DNA of 24,000 nt, from contig NZ_QGNJ01000009.1 of the NCBI RefSeq assembly GCF_003336875.1, positions 155,155-179,154 on the forward strand. The letters are read 5' to 3'. The number at the start of each line of letters is the position of its first letter. The stretch's first letter is position 1. The DNA comes from Oleisolibacter albus (GTDB lineage Bacteria; Pseudomonadota; Alphaproteobacteria; Azospirillales; Azospirillaceae). A program made the position numbers and the translations under genes. The notes beneath the pieces were generated by a model that was not told where the DNA came from, ran no database searches, and saw nothing but the letters and a program-made list of their open reading frames with translations. Positions 7,129-10,638 of this stretch are shown here, piece by piece.

Positions 7129-7563
7129 ATGCTGGAAGACAAGACCCACCCCGAGAACCACGACGCGCTCGGCCCGGGACCGGCGCGGCCGAGCGAGCCG
7201 CCGCCGGAAGAGGCCGGCCCCGGCCCCGCGCTGCCGCCTGAAGCCGCGCGGCCCGGGACCCCCATCGCCCCGCCCGACGATCCCGTCGTCGGCCTGTCCG
7301 ACTGGATGGTGCGGCTGGCGCCGGAGGTGGCCTCCAGCATCGAGATGTTGAGCACCGCCCAGGCCCGCGGCCTGGCCGTGCTGCAGAACACCCGGCAGAT
7401 GCAGGAGCAGGGCATGCTGGATCTGGCCAGCTATGTGCTGCAGCAGAAGCGCGCCATCCTGGAGCAGACCCGCCGCATGCAGCGGGCGCCGCTGCCGGTG
7501 ACGGTGAAAGCGCGCATCGACGCGCTGACCGACCACATCCTGCGCCAGATGGACGACCATTGA
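7129..7563 (+). CDS. Hypothetical protein with a proline-rich N-terminus and a helical/coiled-coil-like C-terminus; first gene of the putative R-body operon
   Basis: ATG 7129 is preceded by GAAGGAG (7115-7121, 7-nt spacing). The product starts [33 protein letters not shown] and ends [46 protein letters not shown]...RQMDDH. GC3 bias is strong and composition is sensible. I recognise no family. Confidence 0.65.
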
Positions 7564-7626
7564 CCAGGGCCGCACCGCCGGCCCCGGAGCCGGCGGCACA
7601 GCCAGCCGTAAGAAGGACGCACGCGC

Positions 7627-8046
7627 ATGTCAGACGGCACGGACACCGTTGACACGGGGGAGGCGGCAGCATTGCCCGCACCGCCGCCTTCGCTCCCACC
7701 TCCGCCCCCACCCAAGGACCCGCTGGTGGCTCTGGCCGAGCTGCTGCTGATCCTGTCGCCGGTCTGGACCGCCGCGCTGGAGCGCATGGCCCTGTTCCAT
7801 CCCGGCGGCCCGGTCCAGCCGCCGGCCGCGGGTCCGCAGTCGGCCCAGGCCCGGGCCATGGTCGAGCTGTTCAATCTGGCCGTCCTGCTGGAACGGGCCA
7901 CCGCCCGCAGGCCGCCCCGGATCGGGCCGCGCCGGCTGAAGCGCCCGGCCGATCCCGCCGCAACCCGCATGAAGATGATGGCCCTGGGCAACCAGATCCA
8001 GGCGCTGCTGCCGGCCCAGGCCGCCCCCGCGCCGCGCAAGTCGTAA
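7627..8046 (+). CDS. Hypothetical protein with a proline-rich N-terminus and one hydrophobic segment
   Basis: ATG 7627 is preceded by AAGAAGGA (~7609-7616). The product starts [59 protein letters not shown]3 bias is strong. I recognise no family. Confidence 0.6.
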
Positions 8047-8102
8047 AAATCGCTCTCTTTTCTCGTCTCGGCTTCACAAATCACCGCAAGGATCGTCCTT
8101 GA

Positions 8103-8125
8103 ATTGTGCGGATCGGCCGCACAAT
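8103..8125. promoter_or_regulatory. Perfect 9-bp inverted repeat ATTGTGCGG-N5-CCGCACAAT, 27 nt upstream of the first reb-like start codon; candidate operator or 5'-UTR hairpin
   Basis: Seen directly: the arms are 8103-8111 and 8117-8125. No T-tract follows. A second small hairpin CAAGGA-TCG-TCCTTG sits at 8087-8101. Confidence 0.4.
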
Positions 8126-8152
8126 CCATGAGCTAGGATCAGGAGACACCCC

Positions 8153-8521
8153 ATGCCGTCCACCATTTCCATCGACGACTCCACCGTTGCCGTTGGCGGC
8201 GGCCGCGTCGCCCCGCAGGTGACCGACGCCGTGACCCAGGCCAACGTCAAGGTGCTGGGCGATGCCCCGGCCATGGCCATGGGCCTGGTCTATCAGACCA
8301 TGGCCCAGTCCACCGGCCTGGCCTTCCAGAACGCCGTCGCCGCCCAGCAGCAGATGAACGCCACGGCCCAGGCGGCCACGGTGCAGGGCATCAACCAGCT
8401 CTACAGCTTCGACACCATCTCCACCGGCGTGGCCGACAGCGAGGTCGCCAACGCCAACCTGCCGGAGATCATGTCGTCGCTGTTGGCGGTGGTGCAGGCC
8501 TTCCAGAAGTCCGGCAGCTGA
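8153..8521 (+). CDS. RebB-family ('killing trait') R-body subunit homologue, paralog 1
   Basis: AGGAGA (8140-8145) precedes ATG 8153. The 122-aa product contains VTDAVTQANVKVLGDAPAMAMGLVYQTMAQSTGLAFQNAVAAQQQMNATAQAATVQGINQLYSFDT. This matches my memory of the RebB/PF11747 core (xITDxVTQxNVKVxGExPAxAM...QSxxHSxG...NAVxxQQQxN...AxxTQG). Size and composition fit Reb proteins. Confidence 0.8.
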   Translation: MPSTISIDDSTVAVGGGRVAPQVTDAVTQANVKVLGDAPAMAMGLVYQTMAQSTGLAFQNAVAAQQQMNATAQAATVQGINQLYSFDTISTGVADSEVANANLPEIMSSLLAVVQAFQKSGS

Positions 8522-8604
8522 TCCACGCAGGTGCGGAGCTGGCGACGGGCATGGCGTCAGGCCATGCCCGTCCTTCCCGTCGGTCCGGTTAAGGGAACAG
8601 GGCG

Positions 8605-9000
8605 ATGAATACAGTCAGCGTGAGTGACGCAATACAGACCGTGGACCCGGCCATCACCGCGGCGATCGCGGATGTGGGCGTGCAGACCCTGGCCGTGGCG
8701 CCCACCATGGCCCAGGGTGAACTGGCCCTCAGCGGTGCCGGCAGCACCGGCCTCGCCTTCAGCCAGTCTGTCGGCCACCAGCAGCGCATGGATGCGGTGG
8801 CGCAGGCCGCGACGACACAAGGATTGACCATGCTTCTCGCGGCGCGTCCGGTCCCGCGCCTTGCCCCGGAGGTCAAGACCATGCAAACCAAACGTACACC
8901 GGCACCGGTGGTGACCGTGCTGCTGGAACTGCTGCTGGTGCTGGTCCAGAAGAAGAAGCCGAAGAAGGACAAATCGGACATCGTCATCACCATCGTCTGA
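8605..9000 (+). CDS. Divergent Reb-like paralog 2 with a hydrophobic + poly-lysine C-terminal extension
   Basis: The core ITAAIADVGVQTLAVAPTMAQGELALSGAGSTGLAFSQSVGHQQRMDAVAQAATTQGLTML aligns column for column with paralog 1 (STGLAF, QQ-M, AQAAT-QG). The tail reads ...MQTKRTPAPVVTVLLELLLVLVQKKKPKKDKSDIVITIV. An in-frame internal GGAGG (8868-8872) + ATG (8881) is present. Confidence 0.65.
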   Translation: MNTVSVSDAIQTVDPAITAAIADVGVQTLAVAPTMAQGELALSGAGSTGLAFSQSVGHQQRMDAVAQAATTQGLTMLLAARPVPRLAPEVKTMQTKRTPAPVVTVLLELLLVLVQKKKPKKDKSDIVITIV

Positions 9001-9090
9001 ACGGGATCCGCCCGGACTGGTCCCAGGGACATTCCCGGAGAACAGGCCGGCCCCTGTCCGTCCTTGTGAGCCCCTTGCACGAGGTCCCCT

Positions 9091-9354
9091 ATGGCCGATG
9101 ACGGCAGTACAACGACGGCGGTGGTGACGGCTCCCCCTGTCCGGGTCGACCCGGCCATCGTCGAGGCCATCGCCAATGCCAACATGAAGGTCATGGGCGA
9201 CAGCCCGATCGTCGCCGTCAGCGTGGTCTACCAGTCGCTGGCCACCGCCATCAGCATCTGCCTGCAGAATGCCGCCGTGAACCAGCAGAACATCATCAAC
9301 ATCGCCAATGCCTCCACCGGCGTGATCACGCAGAAGATCACGGCCATGGCCTAG
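9091..9354 (+). CDS. Short Reb-like paralog 3 (87 aa)
   Basis: GAGG lies 7 nt upstream of ATG 9091. IVEAIANANMKVMGDSPIVAVSVVYQSLATAISICLQNAAVNQQNIINIANASTGVITQKI aligns with paralog 1 (NxKVxGDxP, VYQxxA, QNAxxxQQ). Confidence 0.65.
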   Translation: MADDGSTTTAVVTAPPVRVDPAIVEAIANANMKVMGDSPIVAVSVVYQSLATAISICLQNAAVNQQNIINIANASTGVITQKITAMA

Positions 9355-9395
9355 GACTGCACGGCACAGCGCGGATGGACGACGGAGAAGCCGCC

Positions 9396-9737
9396 ATGTC
9401 CAGCATCGACGGGGAAATCCTCGACAGCATCACCGCCTCGCAGCAGGTGACCATCGCGGACTCGCGTGAAAACGCGCTGGCCCAGTCCTACGCCTATGTG
9501 GCCCAGTCCACGGCCATGGCCGTCCAGAACGGCAACACCTATCTGCAGCAGGTGGAAACCCTGTGCATCGCCGCGCTGGGCGTCGTGCTCAGCAAGATGG
9601 TGCAGAACCCGGCCACGGCCGAGCTGTGGGCCCCCGTCATCCCCCAGGTCATGTCCCCGGTGGCCACGGCCACGACGCAGTGGGGCGCCATCGGCACCAC
9701 CGCGGCCGACATCGCCAAGACCTATCCCTCAAGCTGA
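9396..9737 (+). CDS. Distant Reb-like paralog 4 (113 aa from ATG 9396; 120 aa if from ATG 9375)
   Basis: GGAG (9384-9387) sits 8 nt before ATG 9396, so I prefer that start. ILDSITASQQVTIADSRENALAQSYAYVAQSTAMAVQNGNTYLQQVETLCIAALGVVLSKM keeps the I-xDS-T, AQST-xA-QN and QQ spacing of the other three, but similarity is weak. Confidence 0.5.
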   Translation: MSSIDGEILDSITASQQVTIADSRENALAQSYAYVAQSTAMAVQNGNTYLQQVETLCIAALGVVLSKMVQNPATAELWAPVIPQVMSPVATATTQWGAIGTTAADIAKTYPSS

Positions 9738-9758
9738 ACCGGCATCCGGCCACGAAAG

Positions 9759-9793
9759 AAGCCGCCGGCGGTGGCCGGCGGCTTGTGGTTTTC
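9759..9793. terminator. Bidirectional rho-independent terminator shared by the reb-like operon (+) and the convergent sigma factor gene (-)
   Basis: A perfect 11-bp stem AAGCCGCCGGC (9759-9769) / GCCGGCGGCTT (9774-9784) has a GGTG loop. It is followed by GTGGTTTTC on the + strand and by TTTCGTG on the minus strand. It lies between the stop codons at 9737 and 9844. Confidence 0.8.
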
Positions 9794-9843
9794 GACGCGC
9801 GGACAGGCGCGGGCGGACCGGAACGCGCGGGACCGGCCGGATC

Positions 9844-10638
9844 TCAGAAGCGCCGGTCCACCACGCTGCGCAGCACTGTGCGCGCCAGCTGCACGCGTTT
9901 GCGGGCATTGGCGTTGCTGATGCCCAGGGCCTGGGCGATTCTCTCATAATCCAGGCCCTGTTCCATGCGCATCAGAAAGGGCTGGCGCAGCTGCATGGGC
10001 AGGGCCTCGATGGCCCGGGCCAGGGTCGCGGCCAGTTCCCGGCGCAGCAGGATGTCCTCCGGCGATTGGACGGTCGGCATCCAGGGGAGACCGTCCTCCT
10101 CCGGAAGATTGTCCAGATCCACGTCCGTCATCCAGAGATCGTTGCGCTGACGCCCGCGGTACAGATCCATGCAGGCATTGTGGGCGGCGCGGCGCAGATA
10201 GGCCAGGCTGTTGACCACGGGCTGGCTGCCGCCACGGGTAAACTGGACGAAGTTCAGGATGGCTGTGTTGGTGGCATCCTCGGCATCGGCGGTGTGGCCG
10301 CGCATCAGCCGCAGGCATTGCAGATAGATGGTGTGGCGGTGCGCCTCGCCGATCGGCGTCACCGTCGCGTCGGCGGCCGGACGCGCCTTGGCCGGTTCCG
10401 CCGCCGCGGACCGGGACGGAGCGGCCGCAGCCTCCCCCGCCCCGCCGGCCGGCTGCACGGCAGGGTTGACCGCGGCGATGTCCACCGGAATGTCGGACGC
10501 CATTGCCGGCAGACCGGACTTCTTGCCGAACGTCCGTTGCCACCAGTTCCGAAAGGGCAGCGCCCCTTCACGTGGGGCAGACTCCTCCTGCTCGGCAAAA
10601 CACGGGTTTTGCCGCTCATCGATGACCAGCGGGTGCAT
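9844..10638 (-). CDS. ECF-type (group 4) sigma-70 family RNA polymerase sigma factor with a ~95-aa Ala/Pro-rich N-terminal extension
   Basis: Region-2-like sequence is HRHTIYLQCLRLMRGHTADAEDATNTAILNF...AYLRRAAHNACMDLYRGRQR. The region-4 HTH is LPMQLRQPFLMRMEQGLDYERIAQALGISNANARKRVQLARTVLR. AAGGA lies ~8 nt upstream of ATG 10638. An alternative in-frame start is at 10503 (MASDIPVD). Confidence 0.8.
   Translation of the reverse strand: MHPLVIDERQNPCFAEQEESAPREGALPFRNWWQRTFGKKSGLPAMASDIPVDIAAVNPAVQPAGGAGEAAAAPSRSAAAEPAKARPAADATVTPIGEAHRHTIYLQCLRLMRGHTADAEDATNTAILNFVQFTRGGSQPVVNSLAYLRRAAHNACMDLYRGRQRNDLWMTDVDLDNLPEEDGLPWMPTVQSPEDILLRRELAATLARAIEALPMQLRQPFLMRMEQGLDYERIAQALGISNANARKRVQLARTVLRSVVDRRF

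Follow-up and report, generated by a model that had tools for sequence, protein, structure and literature searches.

The soil bacterium Oleisolibacter albus (Azospirillaceae) possesses a compact reb cluster, which raises the question of whether the locus encodes an R-body system under its own sigma factor and what the two orphan genes in front of the reb genes might contribute. In the window, the whole stretch of 24,000 nucleotides that was analysed, all seven genes are present:

7129-7563, + strand: orfA, orphan gene, 144 aa
7627-8046, + strand: orfB, orphan gene, 139 aa
8153-8521, + strand: P1, major-type Reb subunit, 122 aa
8605-9000, + strand: P2, divergent Reb, 131 aa
9091-9354, + strand: P3, small Reb, 87 aa
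9396-9737, + strand: P4, conserved "secondary" Reb family, 113 aa
9844-10638, - strand: ECF sigma factor gene, convergent to P4, 264 aa

As the original prediction had it for the reb and orphan genes, each gene has its own SD, readable 6-9 nt upstream of the start. An alternative ATG of P4 at 9375 has no SD, and the gene caller on the sister contig likewise gives a protein of 113 aa. The flanks agree with the housekeeping neighbourhood described before, and no mobility genes or tRNAs were found around the cluster. We compared the locus with 79 other reb loci, 60 of which have a sigma homologue (34 of class A and 26 of class B) and 19 of which do not. The sister lineage used for the selection tests, L080, is very close (dS 0.02-0.2), which limits these tests. 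The reb genes and P4 are intact, and P1-P4 are 98-100% identical to those of the sister lineage with dN/dS values of ≤0.17.

P1-P4 had been described as four mutually alignable Reb paralogs. The similarity is statistically real, and three of the proteins exceed the 24-bit cut-off of the Pfam RebB profile PF11747: P1 with 105.5 bits (E = 1.5e-30), as expected from its earlier assignment to the RebB family, P2 with 41.7 bits (E = 1.3e-10), and P3 with 35.3 bits (E = 1.2e-8). P4 has no direct match in the Pfam profile search and is not a member of PF11747; when its family profile is compared with the Reb profile by hhalign (94.7% probability, E = 6e-8, 67 columns), the P4 family is placed as a distant Reb relative. 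P1 is the only major-type Reb of the locus, scoring 151 bits against the major-type HMM, sharing 50-65% identity with Reb proteins of many taxa, and carrying all four diagnostic motifs (QVTD, KxxxD, NAV, and QQQ) defined in PMC13430693. In the alignment, P2 lacks the QITD, KxxxD, and NAV motifs; its C-terminal tail is hydrophobic and then Lys-rich, and the protein, tail included, is 98% identical in L080. P3, which is 100% identical in L080, is of the small Reb type usually found before a P4-like gene: it reaches 51.6 bits with the HMM built from such small Rebs and 47.8 bits with the major-type HMM. Comparison with other reb loci, as originally proposed, was informative for P4: the HMM of its family finds members in 68 of the 79, mostly in the final position behind a small Reb, and 52 of 72 P4-family ORFs are preceded by a small Reb, the same order as P3-P4. 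The family is S3/S4-like and RapA-related, has as one of its members the ORF that occupies the place of rapA in Pseudomonas L039, and ends in an FPSG-like C-terminus (TYPSS in P4). These comparisons show one major-type Reb (P1), two divergent paralogues (P2 and P3), and one distant "secondary" Reb (P4).

The convergent gene encodes an ECF sigma factor with an N-terminal extension, as proposed before; the protein contains Sigma70_r4_2 (1.4e-11), Sigma70_r2 (5e-4), and TIGR02937 (4e-16) domains and is 97% identical in L080. Sigma homologues flank 60 of the 79 other loci and fall into two classes, A and B, with distant similarity to each other (25-45 bits). The extension of ~95 aa is common to class A, an alphaproteobacterial subclass, and the O. 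albus protein belongs to this reb-associated clade of extended sigma factors. No anti-sigma gene is recognisable near the sigma gene, no anti-sigma domain was found with the Pfam and NCBIfam profiles, and no RcgA-like co-regulator lies beside the cluster.

In the canonical ECF promoter, a 16-nt spacer separates an xxCAC -35 element from a -10 element of the sequence CGTC. A motif of this kind, TTCAC-N16-CGTC, was spotted by eye and tested afterwards; exactly three perfect matches occur in the 24 kb against 0.12 expected, and none of 100 shuffles reaches three. Each match is upstream of and co-oriented with orfA, P1, or the sigma gene; the fourth entry below is the region preceding the sigma gene:

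7056..7080, + strand: P_orfA (TTCAC-N16-CGTC), exact match, 49 nt 5' of the orfA ATG
8073..8097, + strand: P_reb (TTCACAAA-...-CGTC), exact match, 56 nt 5' of the P1 ATG
10736..10760, - strand: P_sig (TTCACAGC-...-CGTC), exact match, 98 nt 5' of the sigma ATG
10639..10815, - strand: 5'UTR of the sigma gene with the control region upstream of it, GC-poor and 100% identical to the sister lineage, with an A/T-rich tract immediately 5' of the -35 element

In L080 and L081, the -35 and -10 elements of P_orfA are invariant while its spacer and upstream flank diverge, P_reb is kept with a variable spacer, and P_sig is identical. Across the other loci, 59 of 108 strict matches are located in the 330 nt that precede Reb or sigma genes, a zone that makes up 6.2% of positions (p = 4e-42, a value inflated by the phylogenetic non-independence of related loci). 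With these three sites, the sigma factor is probably autoregulated, as P_sig implies, and would drive two structural transcripts; this agrees with the self-regulation suggested earlier. Autoregulation is typical of ECF sigma factors.

The two genes behind P_orfA are real genes and, as originally predicted, true orphans. Their GC3 values (0.92 in orfA and 0.88 in orfB) with a GC2 of about 0.5 give the codon-position signature of real genes, and both differ from L080 by in-frame indels only (dN/dS 0.55 and 0.41, respectively), drifting faster than P1-P4 between the two lineages. Among 5.8e9 proteins, orfA finds itself and one ~81% homologue only; a full HMMER scan of 1.84e9 representative proteins gives nothing further, and there is no Pfam, NCBIfam, PHROG, or PADLOC match. 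A word-seeded search with orfB likewise gives one ~80% homologue only. The orfA protein contains a Pro-rich disordered N-terminus (1-55) followed by two helices, a long one at 56-117 and another at 124-143, in an AF2 model with a pLDDT of 66. The orfB protein contains an acidic Pro-rich N-terminus, a hydrophobic helix (~32-57) that is possibly membrane-spanning, and a basic C-terminal part; its AF2 model, with three helices, is of low confidence (pLDDT 53).

Position and the shared promoter make assembly or regulatory accessories the likeliest role for orfA and orfB. We give a fairly small chance to the alternatives that the pair are unrelated neighbours or that they supply the missing anti-sigma or negative-feedback function: neither protein has homology to other proteins, ECF regulons classically contain their own negative regulator, no anti-sigma gene is visible here, and the hydrophobic helix of orfB could span a membrane. 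However, unrelated neighbours would hardly share the promoter motif before orfA or keep their synteny with the reb genes in L080, and in other reb loci the motif also precedes small genes for Pro-rich helical proteins without homology to these two. The anti-sigma variant keeps some probability, although no anti-sigma domain was detected.

Three RNA or DNA structures accompany the reb genes:

8100..8128, + strand: inverted repeat TGAATTGTGCGG-N5-CCGCACAATCCA, where the reb mRNA is predicted to begin
8544..8572, + strand: 12-bp perfect intercistronic hairpin after P1, without a U-run
9759..9784, no strand assigned: 11-bp perfect GC-rich hairpin between P4 and the sigma gene, predicted intrinsic terminator of the reb operon

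The inverted repeat retains its stem in L080 with an altered loop and is a candidate 5' stem-loop or operator; the fold of the wider region is not significant (z-score -0.74). The hairpin after P1 is part of a 55-nt fold (8536-8590) of -31.8 kcal/mol with z = -3.8. Stable folds behind major-type Reb genes are a general feature of the loci (mean z -2.0 vs -0.2 to -0.4 for other Reb genes). The hairpin at 9759-9784 had been called a perfect bidirectional terminator. Its stem is perfect, with folding energies of -28.4 kcal/mol for one strand and -27.0 kcal/mol for the other, but a usable U-run is found on the plus strand only, so that the bidirectional claim is partly supported and the predicted terminator is convincing for the plus strand alone.

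Taken together, we consider it quite probable that the locus is a sigma-driven R-body system with an autoregulated ECF sigma factor, two transcripts, and orfA and orfB as accessories. The active sigma factor would transcribe its own gene, and this positive feedback could give all-or-none expression in a subpopulation as in P. aeruginosa PA14, where rebP1 expression is FecI2-dependent and stochastic (PMC8322103). It would also drive the orfA-orfB transcript, probably with read-through into the reb genes, and a second transcript of P1-P4. The strong hairpin right after P1 probably stabilises or partly terminates this transcript, and we propose that the major subunit would thus be produced in larger amounts than P2-P4. 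In the cytoplasm, the Reb proteins would polymerise to form a coiled ribbon; a trigger, for instance low pH, could make this ribbon extend and damage the membranes of a predator. As lineage-specific helical Pro-rich proteins of the same regulon, orfA and orfB may have a function comparable to that of the non-homologous RebC from Caedibacter; bioRxiv 10.64898/2026.05.21.725848 describes RebC as needed for ordered assembly and not incorporated into the ribbon. Counting against this reading are the single major-type Reb, compared with two in the characterised systems (RebA/RebB and RebP1/RebP2), the absence of diagnostic motifs from P2, the low number of reb genes, by which the cluster could be functionally reduced, and the absence of an adjoining RcgA-like regulator, which is required in PA14.

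The Reb-like proteins might have another purpose, for example in a different filament or sheet or in the sigma-factor pathway. Casas-Pastor et al. suggested a non-R-body role for RebB copies beside ECF237 sigma factors (PMC7826278), and the O. albus cluster is reduced, with a P2 lacking the motifs, no RebC homologue, and no long-form RapA. We regard this as improbable, as P1 is a typical major-type Reb by HMM score and motifs and clusters of the same architecture occur in taxa with reported R-bodies, namely PA14 (PMC8322103) and Labrenzia alexandrii (PMC3764935). A decaying remnant of a larger cluster that has lost functional R-bodies is quite improbable. The locus does have the fewest reb genes (three plus P4, compared with roughly 5-11) among the 34 class-A loci sampled, P2 is divergent, and the closest clusters, in Nisaea (L005) and Thalassospira, hold 6-9 genes; against decay, every gene is intact with an SD, P1-P4 are better conserved than the faster drifting orfA and orfB, the three promoters are intact in both lineages, and GC3 is host-like. 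To our knowledge, no alternative function of PF11747 proteins is known, which also counts against a purpose other than R-bodies. Finally, binding of the motif by another ECF sigma or transcription factor is quite improbable: although its link to the adjacent sigma factor is a prediction from sequence and the distant class A and B sigma factors share it, its architecture is canonical, and it precedes the sigma gene itself, autoregulation having been reported for every alternative sigma factor investigated in P. aeruginosa, among them FecI2 (PMC4362757). Moreover, loci with a sigma homologue usually have the motif (37 of 60) and those without one hardly ever do (1 of 19).

The sigma-driven system preferred here has clear counterparts. 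The PA14 cluster (rcgA, fecI2, rebD, rapA, rebP1, and rebP2; PMC8322103) similarly encodes an ECF sigma factor and a major-type Reb, and it has a P4/RapA-family gene directly behind a small Reb. P1 shares about 56% identity with the RebP-type proteins of Pseudomonas L039, and the promoter motif is present in 14 of the 26 loci of class B, to which the Pseudomonas type belongs, though not in L039 itself. In contrast, the O. albus sigma factor is of the other, extended subclass and matches the Pseudomonas-type sigma with only ~43 bits, the locus has a single major Reb where PA14 has two and no adjoining RcgA-like regulator, P4 (113 aa) lacks the Pro-/charge-rich N-terminal extension of the 210-aa RapA, and orfA and orfB are extra.

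Closer to the O. albus locus are the alphaproteobacterial multi-Reb clusters of Nisaea, Thalassospira, Kordiimonas, Brevundimonas, and Caulobacter, which probably correspond to the ECF237 neighbourhood of PMC7826278. They have the N-terminally extended ECF sigma, with the best matches to that of O. albus (up to 121 bits), the best P4 match (Nisaea, E = 1e-16), the promoter motif before sigma and Reb genes, and a P4-like gene last in the array. They differ in their larger number of Reb genes and in a sigma gene that is usually co-directional or upstream instead of convergent, and no orfA or orfB homologue was found in the clusters compared. Caedibacter taeniospiralis type 51 also combines several small Reb paralogues with a small non-homologous accessory (RebC), in a four-gene rebA-D operon for which the available accounts describe no sigma factor. 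Rhodospirillum centenum, a high-GC member of the Rhodospirillales described as belonging to the Azospirillum clade, has a seven-gene R-body operon (RC1_1993-1999) induced up to 50-fold during cyst formation (PMC4340629), and its rcRebE serves the 2026 survey (PMC13430693) as type sequence for group 5, a rare one. Since its locus is absent from the best 80 P1 relatives and the closest clusters are in other families, the two loci are probably not orthologous.

The core of the earlier reading, a reb locus of four Reb-related genes and two orphans with an ECF sigma factor of its own, is supported. The composition of the module had been thought uncharacterised, which does not really hold: synteny of sigma and Reb genes was described as early as 2013 (PMC3583457), and also for PA14 (PMC8322103), for ECF237 sigma factors (PMC7826278), and in the 2026 survey (PMC13430693), and the N-terminal extension is shared by the whole sigma subclass. 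The O. albus cluster is a real, fairly ordinary, reduced case of a widespread and well-surveyed system, with R-body formation predicted, and what is new is the shared ECF-type promoter motif. The lower GC noted earlier by eye is also real, falling to 0.65-0.66 over 8001-9500. The dip arises at codon positions 1 and 2 and reflects amino-acid composition, and with a host-like GC3 of 0.91-0.95 in P1, P3, and P4 it is no evidence of transfer or foreign origin.

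All seven open reading frames of the predicted R-body locus are present in the Oleisolibacter albus (Azospirillaceae) window at the positions first given, and every one of them has a Shine-Dalgarno sequence 6-9 nt upstream:

7129-7563, + strand: orfA, orphan gene
7627-8046, + strand: orfB, orphan gene
8153-8521, + strand: P1, Reb-related gene
8605-9000, + strand: P2, Reb-related gene
9091-9354, + strand: P3, Reb-related gene
9396-9737, + strand: P4, Reb-related gene
9844-10638, - strand: ECF sigma factor gene

The flanks are housekeeping genes, with no mobility genes and no tRNAs, in agreement with the setting originally described. 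The neighbouring genes encode a sulfur transporter, 5-oxoprolinase, a GNAT acetyltransferase, DjlA, an ABC-F ATPase, an exonuclease/phosphatase, an AmpD-type amidase, RsmH, and FtsI. The whole locus is found in the same gene order, GNAT and DjlA flanks included, in a close metagenomic sister lineage (L080-L083), and an Rfam scan of 6500-11500 matched no family. The original observation is confirmed, and its interpretation, once refined, is right in essence: the locus, predicted from its sequence to form R-bodies under sigma control, is a reduced member of a widespread, well-surveyed system. No R-body report for Oleisolibacter was found in the literature.

The main new result of the analysis is a promoter shared within the locus. 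The sequence CTTCAC-N16-CGTC was first seen upstream of orfA and P1 when the intergenic regions were compared with those of L080, and the 24-kb window contains exactly three perfect matches to TTCAC-N16-CGTC versus 0.12 expected; none of 100 shuffles gave three matches. The sites are:

7056-7080, + strand: exact promoter motif, 49 nt before the orfA ATG
8073-8097, + strand: exact promoter motif, 56 nt before the P1 ATG
10760-10736, - strand: exact promoter motif, 98 nt before the sigma ATG

All three are kept in L080 and L081, with both elements invariant and the spacers and flanks varying. We take this architecture, a -35 element with AC at its end and a CGTC -10 element with 16 nt between them, to be that of a canonical ECF promoter. 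The adjacent sigma factor would recognise it, activating its own gene from the sigma promoter and driving orfA-orfB and P1-P4. The same motif upstream of both the sigma gene and the reb genes lends sequence support to the description of the module as self-regulated, recognition by the sigma factor being the presumed step. A motif scan allowing one mismatch found no extra promoters before P2, P3, or P4; the one-mismatch matches were rejected because they lie inside coding sequence or are wrongly spaced.

The sigma gene is convergent with the reb genes, 106 nt from the P4 stop, and its product matches ECF regions 2 and 4 (Sigma70_r2, 5e-4; Sigma70_r4_2, 1.4e-11; TIGR02937, 4.3e-16). Among 79 other reb loci, retrieved with P1 as the query, sigma homologues stand beside the reb genes in 60 and fall into two classes. 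Class A, with scores of about 58-121 bits and usually an N-terminal extension, occurs in Nisaea, Thalassospira, Kordiimonas, Brevundimonas, Caulobacter, and Sneathiella; class B, with 20-47 bits and stop-to-stop ORFs of about 190-280 aa, is FecI2-like and occurs in Pseudomonas, Burkholderia, Xanthomonas, and Pseudovibrio. The window sigma factor belongs to class A and is nearest to that of Nisaea. Its N-terminal extension, which the original prediction had singled out, is present, and its weak alignment with the others centres on a short SPxE(I/V)(L/I)A-like motif, but since such extensions are found across class A, it is a property of the clade and not peculiar to the O. albus locus. Compared with the other class-A loci sampled, which hold roughly 5-11 Reb genes, O. 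albus has three plus one secondary Reb. The sigma factor did not qualify as an orthologue of PA14 FecI2 (~43 bits against the Pseudomonas-type sigma, different length class). There is no recognisable anti-sigma gene near the sigma gene and no RcgA-like cNMP-binding regulator among the neighbours scanned. The composition of the locus had been thought uncharacterised, which is not really the case: the Reb-sigma association was already published as HP2.3 (Raymann 2013, PMC3583457) and as ECF237 (Casas-Pastor 2021, PMC7826278), as were FecI2 plus RcgA with the reb genes of PA14 (PMC8322103). Membership of the window sigma factor in group ECF237 is suggested by the published RebB neighbourhood only.

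In an independent test on the 79 other loci, 59 of the 108 strict motif matches lie upstream of Reb, P4-like, or sigma genes, where upstream means within 330 nt on the same strand and covers 6.2% of positions (binomial p = 4e-42, a value inflated because the loci are phylogenetically related). Presence of the motif goes with presence of the sigma factor: it occurs in 23 of the 34 class-A loci and in 14 of the 26 of class B, versus 1 of 19 loci without a sigma homologue. Beyond the imposed bases, TTCAC-A-A and CGTC-(T/A)-(T/A) are preferred. The passages searched in Schulz 2015 and Wang 2021 give no promoter motif for FecI2. Minus-strand matches within the Reb genes of other loci were rejected as a coding artefact: the codons for DAVTQxNVK reverse-complement to TTCACnTTnGnCTGnGTnACnGCGTC, mimicking the promoter at N17 spacing on the wrong strand (e.g., L077, 10035, - strand), a pitfall when reb loci are scanned for motifs. 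These matches were left out of the list of regulon candidates, yet the enrichment test still includes them in its 49 non-upstream matches.

Over the 177 bp that precede the sigma ATG, the window and L080 do not differ (100% identity). This region (10639-10815), which holds the sigma 5'UTR and promoter, has a GC content of ~0.58 and is better conserved than the adjoining coding sequence. Immediately upstream of the sigma-promoter -35 element lies an A/T-rich near-palindrome, AGAAAAATTTCT, which may bind an additional regulator or act as an UP element.

The claim of four Reb paralogues holds directly for P1, P2, and P3, which score 105.5, 41.7, and 35.3 bits against the PF11747 (RebB) profile with a cut-off of 24, whereas P4 falls below the gathering score and is linked to the family only through profile-profile comparison. 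A cluster of at least three reb paralogues is present, as four consecutive genes at 8153-9737. Primary Reb proteins are diagnosed by QITD, KxxxD/E beside a Pro, NAV, and QQ(Q) (PMC13430693). P1 has all four motifs (QVTD, K33xxxD37-xP, NAV, and QQQ), P3 has a partial set (KxxxD, P, and QQ), and most are missing from P2 and P4, which for this reason are regarded as divergent or secondary members. In comparisons with HMMs built from the sampled loci, P1 is of the major-subunit type (151 bits), and P3 (87 aa) is fitted slightly better by the HMM of small Reb proteins preceding P4-like proteins (51.6 bits versus 47.8 for the major-type HMM). P2 is a divergent derivative of the major type, and its tail, hydrophobic and then Lys-rich, is completely conserved in the sister lineage, to which P1-P4 are 98-100% identical with dN/dS of at most 0.17. 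A search for a solved Reb structure found none.

A phmmer search with P4 on the ORFs of the 79 loci found full-length relatives, and the resulting P4-family HMM (alignment A1) has a member in 68 of them, usually as the gene that closes the Reb array. In clusters of the Pseudomonas, Xanthomonas, and Pseudovibrio types, the sigma gene and a small Reb are followed immediately by the P4-family gene, which there occupies the place that rapA has in PA14; the HMM matches the ORF at this position in the Pseudomonas-type locus L039 (4867-5625, E = 7e-11). A small Reb precedes the P4-like ORF in 52 of 72 cases, as P3 precedes P4 here. Profile-profile comparison of the P4 family with the Reb alignment gave a probability of 94.7% (E = 6e-8, 67 columns), and 4 of 15 family members match PF11747 weakly; on this evidence P4 is a distant, 'secondary' Reb protein. 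In the 2026 Reb survey (PMC13430693), PA14 RapA (210 aa) belongs to secondary group S4, and S3 includes a protein of 113 aa. P4, at 113 aa, has the length of the S3 seed htRebG (113 aa), and unlike RapA (S4, ~210 aa), which bears a Pro-/charge-rich N-terminal extension, it has no extension. Judged by size and published descriptions, P4 would fall in S3 or S4, with the length fitting S3 and the S4-type extension missing.

Two further elements were located in the predicted reb transcript:

8544-8572, + strand: 12-bp perfect hairpin directly after P1
8100-8128: inverted repeat where the reb mRNA is predicted to begin, stem kept and loop altered in L080

The 55-nt fold containing the hairpin has an energy of -31.8 kcal/mol (z = -3.8). 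In the other loci, the 80-nt stretches that follow major-type Reb genes (n = 163) are unusually structured, with a mean z of -2.0 and 36% below -2.5, versus a mean z of -0.2 to -0.4, with 4-7% below -2.5, after other Reb genes. This suggests that the structure after the major Reb gene is a general device raising the major-subunit mRNA above the rest. Its enrichment after major but not minor Reb genes also suggests a conserved control of stoichiometry at the transcript level. The fold of the inverted repeat at 8100-8128 is not statistically exceptional, and the element may act as a 5' stabiliser or serve as an operator. The reb operon has a good terminator in the hairpin at 9759-9784, but this hairpin lacks a U-run on the minus strand, so that the bidirectional function originally proposed is supported for the plus strand only.

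Both orphan genes have the codon-position GC of genuine genes (GC3 of 0.92 in orfA and 0.88 in orfB). They differ from the sister lineage by in-frame indels only, restricted to the Pro-rich N-termini, and have dN/dS values of 0.55 and 0.41, respectively. Searches against 5.8 billion proteins, word-seeded for orfB, gave no homologue beyond self and the sister lineage, and orfA, scanned in full with HMMER against 1.84 billion representatives, returned only itself and one marginal low-complexity match. Exact-sequence look-ups gave no match for P1 or orfA; in the searches against 5.8 billion proteins, orfA and orfB were each 100% identical to a hypothetical protein named for O. albus. No family in Pfam, NCBIfam, PHROGs, or PADLOC was matched, hhalign against Reb showed neither protein to be Reb-like, and no homology to RebC or another known protein appeared in the database and family searches. 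In the AF2 models, residues 1-55 of orfA are disordered, with a 62-residue helix and then another helix after them (pLDDT 66), and orfB has three helices at low confidence; both models are too low-confidence or too simply helical to warrant a fold search. The first helix of orfB is strongly hydrophobic (Kyte-Doolittle ~2.0, an estimate), and a membrane anchor is therefore possible.

A comparable arrangement is found in L057, another reb locus, where three consecutive small acidic, Pro/Gln-rich helical proteins of 154, 140, and 167 aa (7844-9236, + strand) are encoded downstream of an ECF-motif promoter (7759) and ahead of the first Reb gene; in position they correspond to orfA and orfB, with no detectable homology. 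Caedibacter RebC is described as likewise lineage-specific, needed for ordered assembly, and not incorporated. Given these analogues under the motif and the RebC parallel, we prefer, as an unproven reading, that orfA and orfB are assembly or regulatory accessories, their likeness to RebC being functional only. A more specific proposal, which we consider rather doubtful, is that they are unrecognised lineage-specific R-body factors, either assembly chaperones that take the place of RebC and of RapA's Pro-rich extension or negative-feedback partners for an ECF sigma factor lacking an anti-sigma gene. If it were true, the 3.6-kb unit with orfA and orfB would be the smallest self-contained R-body cassette among the 34 class-A loci sampled, made up of one major and three minor subunits together with two accessory proteins and an autoregulatory switch of a single gene, and the TTCAC-N16-CGTC code and the hairpin after the major subunit would be common to reb clusters across phyla.

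The locus itself is one more taxon on a list of several hundred; its specific interest is that two orphan genes stand in the putative ECF regulon, that the unit is compact, and that its promoter and hairpin rules extend to other clusters. R-bodies are pH-driven protein actuators and anti-predator or virulence devices, and a compact cluster with readable regulation, namely three copies of one ECF promoter, a presumably autoregulated sigma factor, and a hairpin after the major-subunit gene, would suit as a minimal system for reconstitution. Since the motif and the hairpin rule apply to dozens of reb loci, they could predict R-body regulons, including non-Reb accessory genes that homology-based surveys deliberately ignore.

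Many non-Reb genes in other loci are also preceded by TTCAC-N16-CGTC. Sites were noted on the minus strand at about 9432 in L045, 9441 in L046 and L061, 3271 in L064, 9818 in L069 and L071, and 9814 in L079. In the Caulobacterales loci L061, L064, L069, L071, and L079, the motif precedes a divergent gene of ~160-210 aa upstream of the Reb array. Its product has the conserved pattern ...WPLxGGWExWAQAEIA...EIVVE[LM]KC[EQ]..., which resembles a PD-(D/E)xK-type nuclease motif, and the gene may belong to the R-body regulon as a non-Reb member. Thalassospira loci have a motif-preceded gene of ~510-570 aa without obvious domains (MTDSDAPKP...), ~2 kb upstream of the sigma gene, at about 5700-6250 (+ strand) in L007-L013, L019, L026, L027, L047, and L054.

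The GC content is indeed lower over the reb genes, at about 0.65, as the original prediction had judged by eye, but GC3 stays at 0.91-0.95 in P1, P3, and P4, and on this ground low GC was rejected as a mark of horizontal transfer. The dip reflects proteins rich in Ala, Gln, Asn, Thr, and Ile and not a recent acquisition. The nearest clusters nevertheless belong to other families, and P1 is no more than 65% identical to any of its best 80 relatives, which fits the extensive horizontal transfer reported for reb genes (PMC13430693).

Elsewhere in the window, a 487-aa ORF at 1710-3173 (- strand) is gene-like, with a GC3 of 0.83, and has no Pfam match at E <= 1e-5. A GC trough at 17400-18800, reaching 0.60 at 18001-18500, lies immediately upstream of rsmH and ftsI and is presumably the promoter region of mraZ and dcw.
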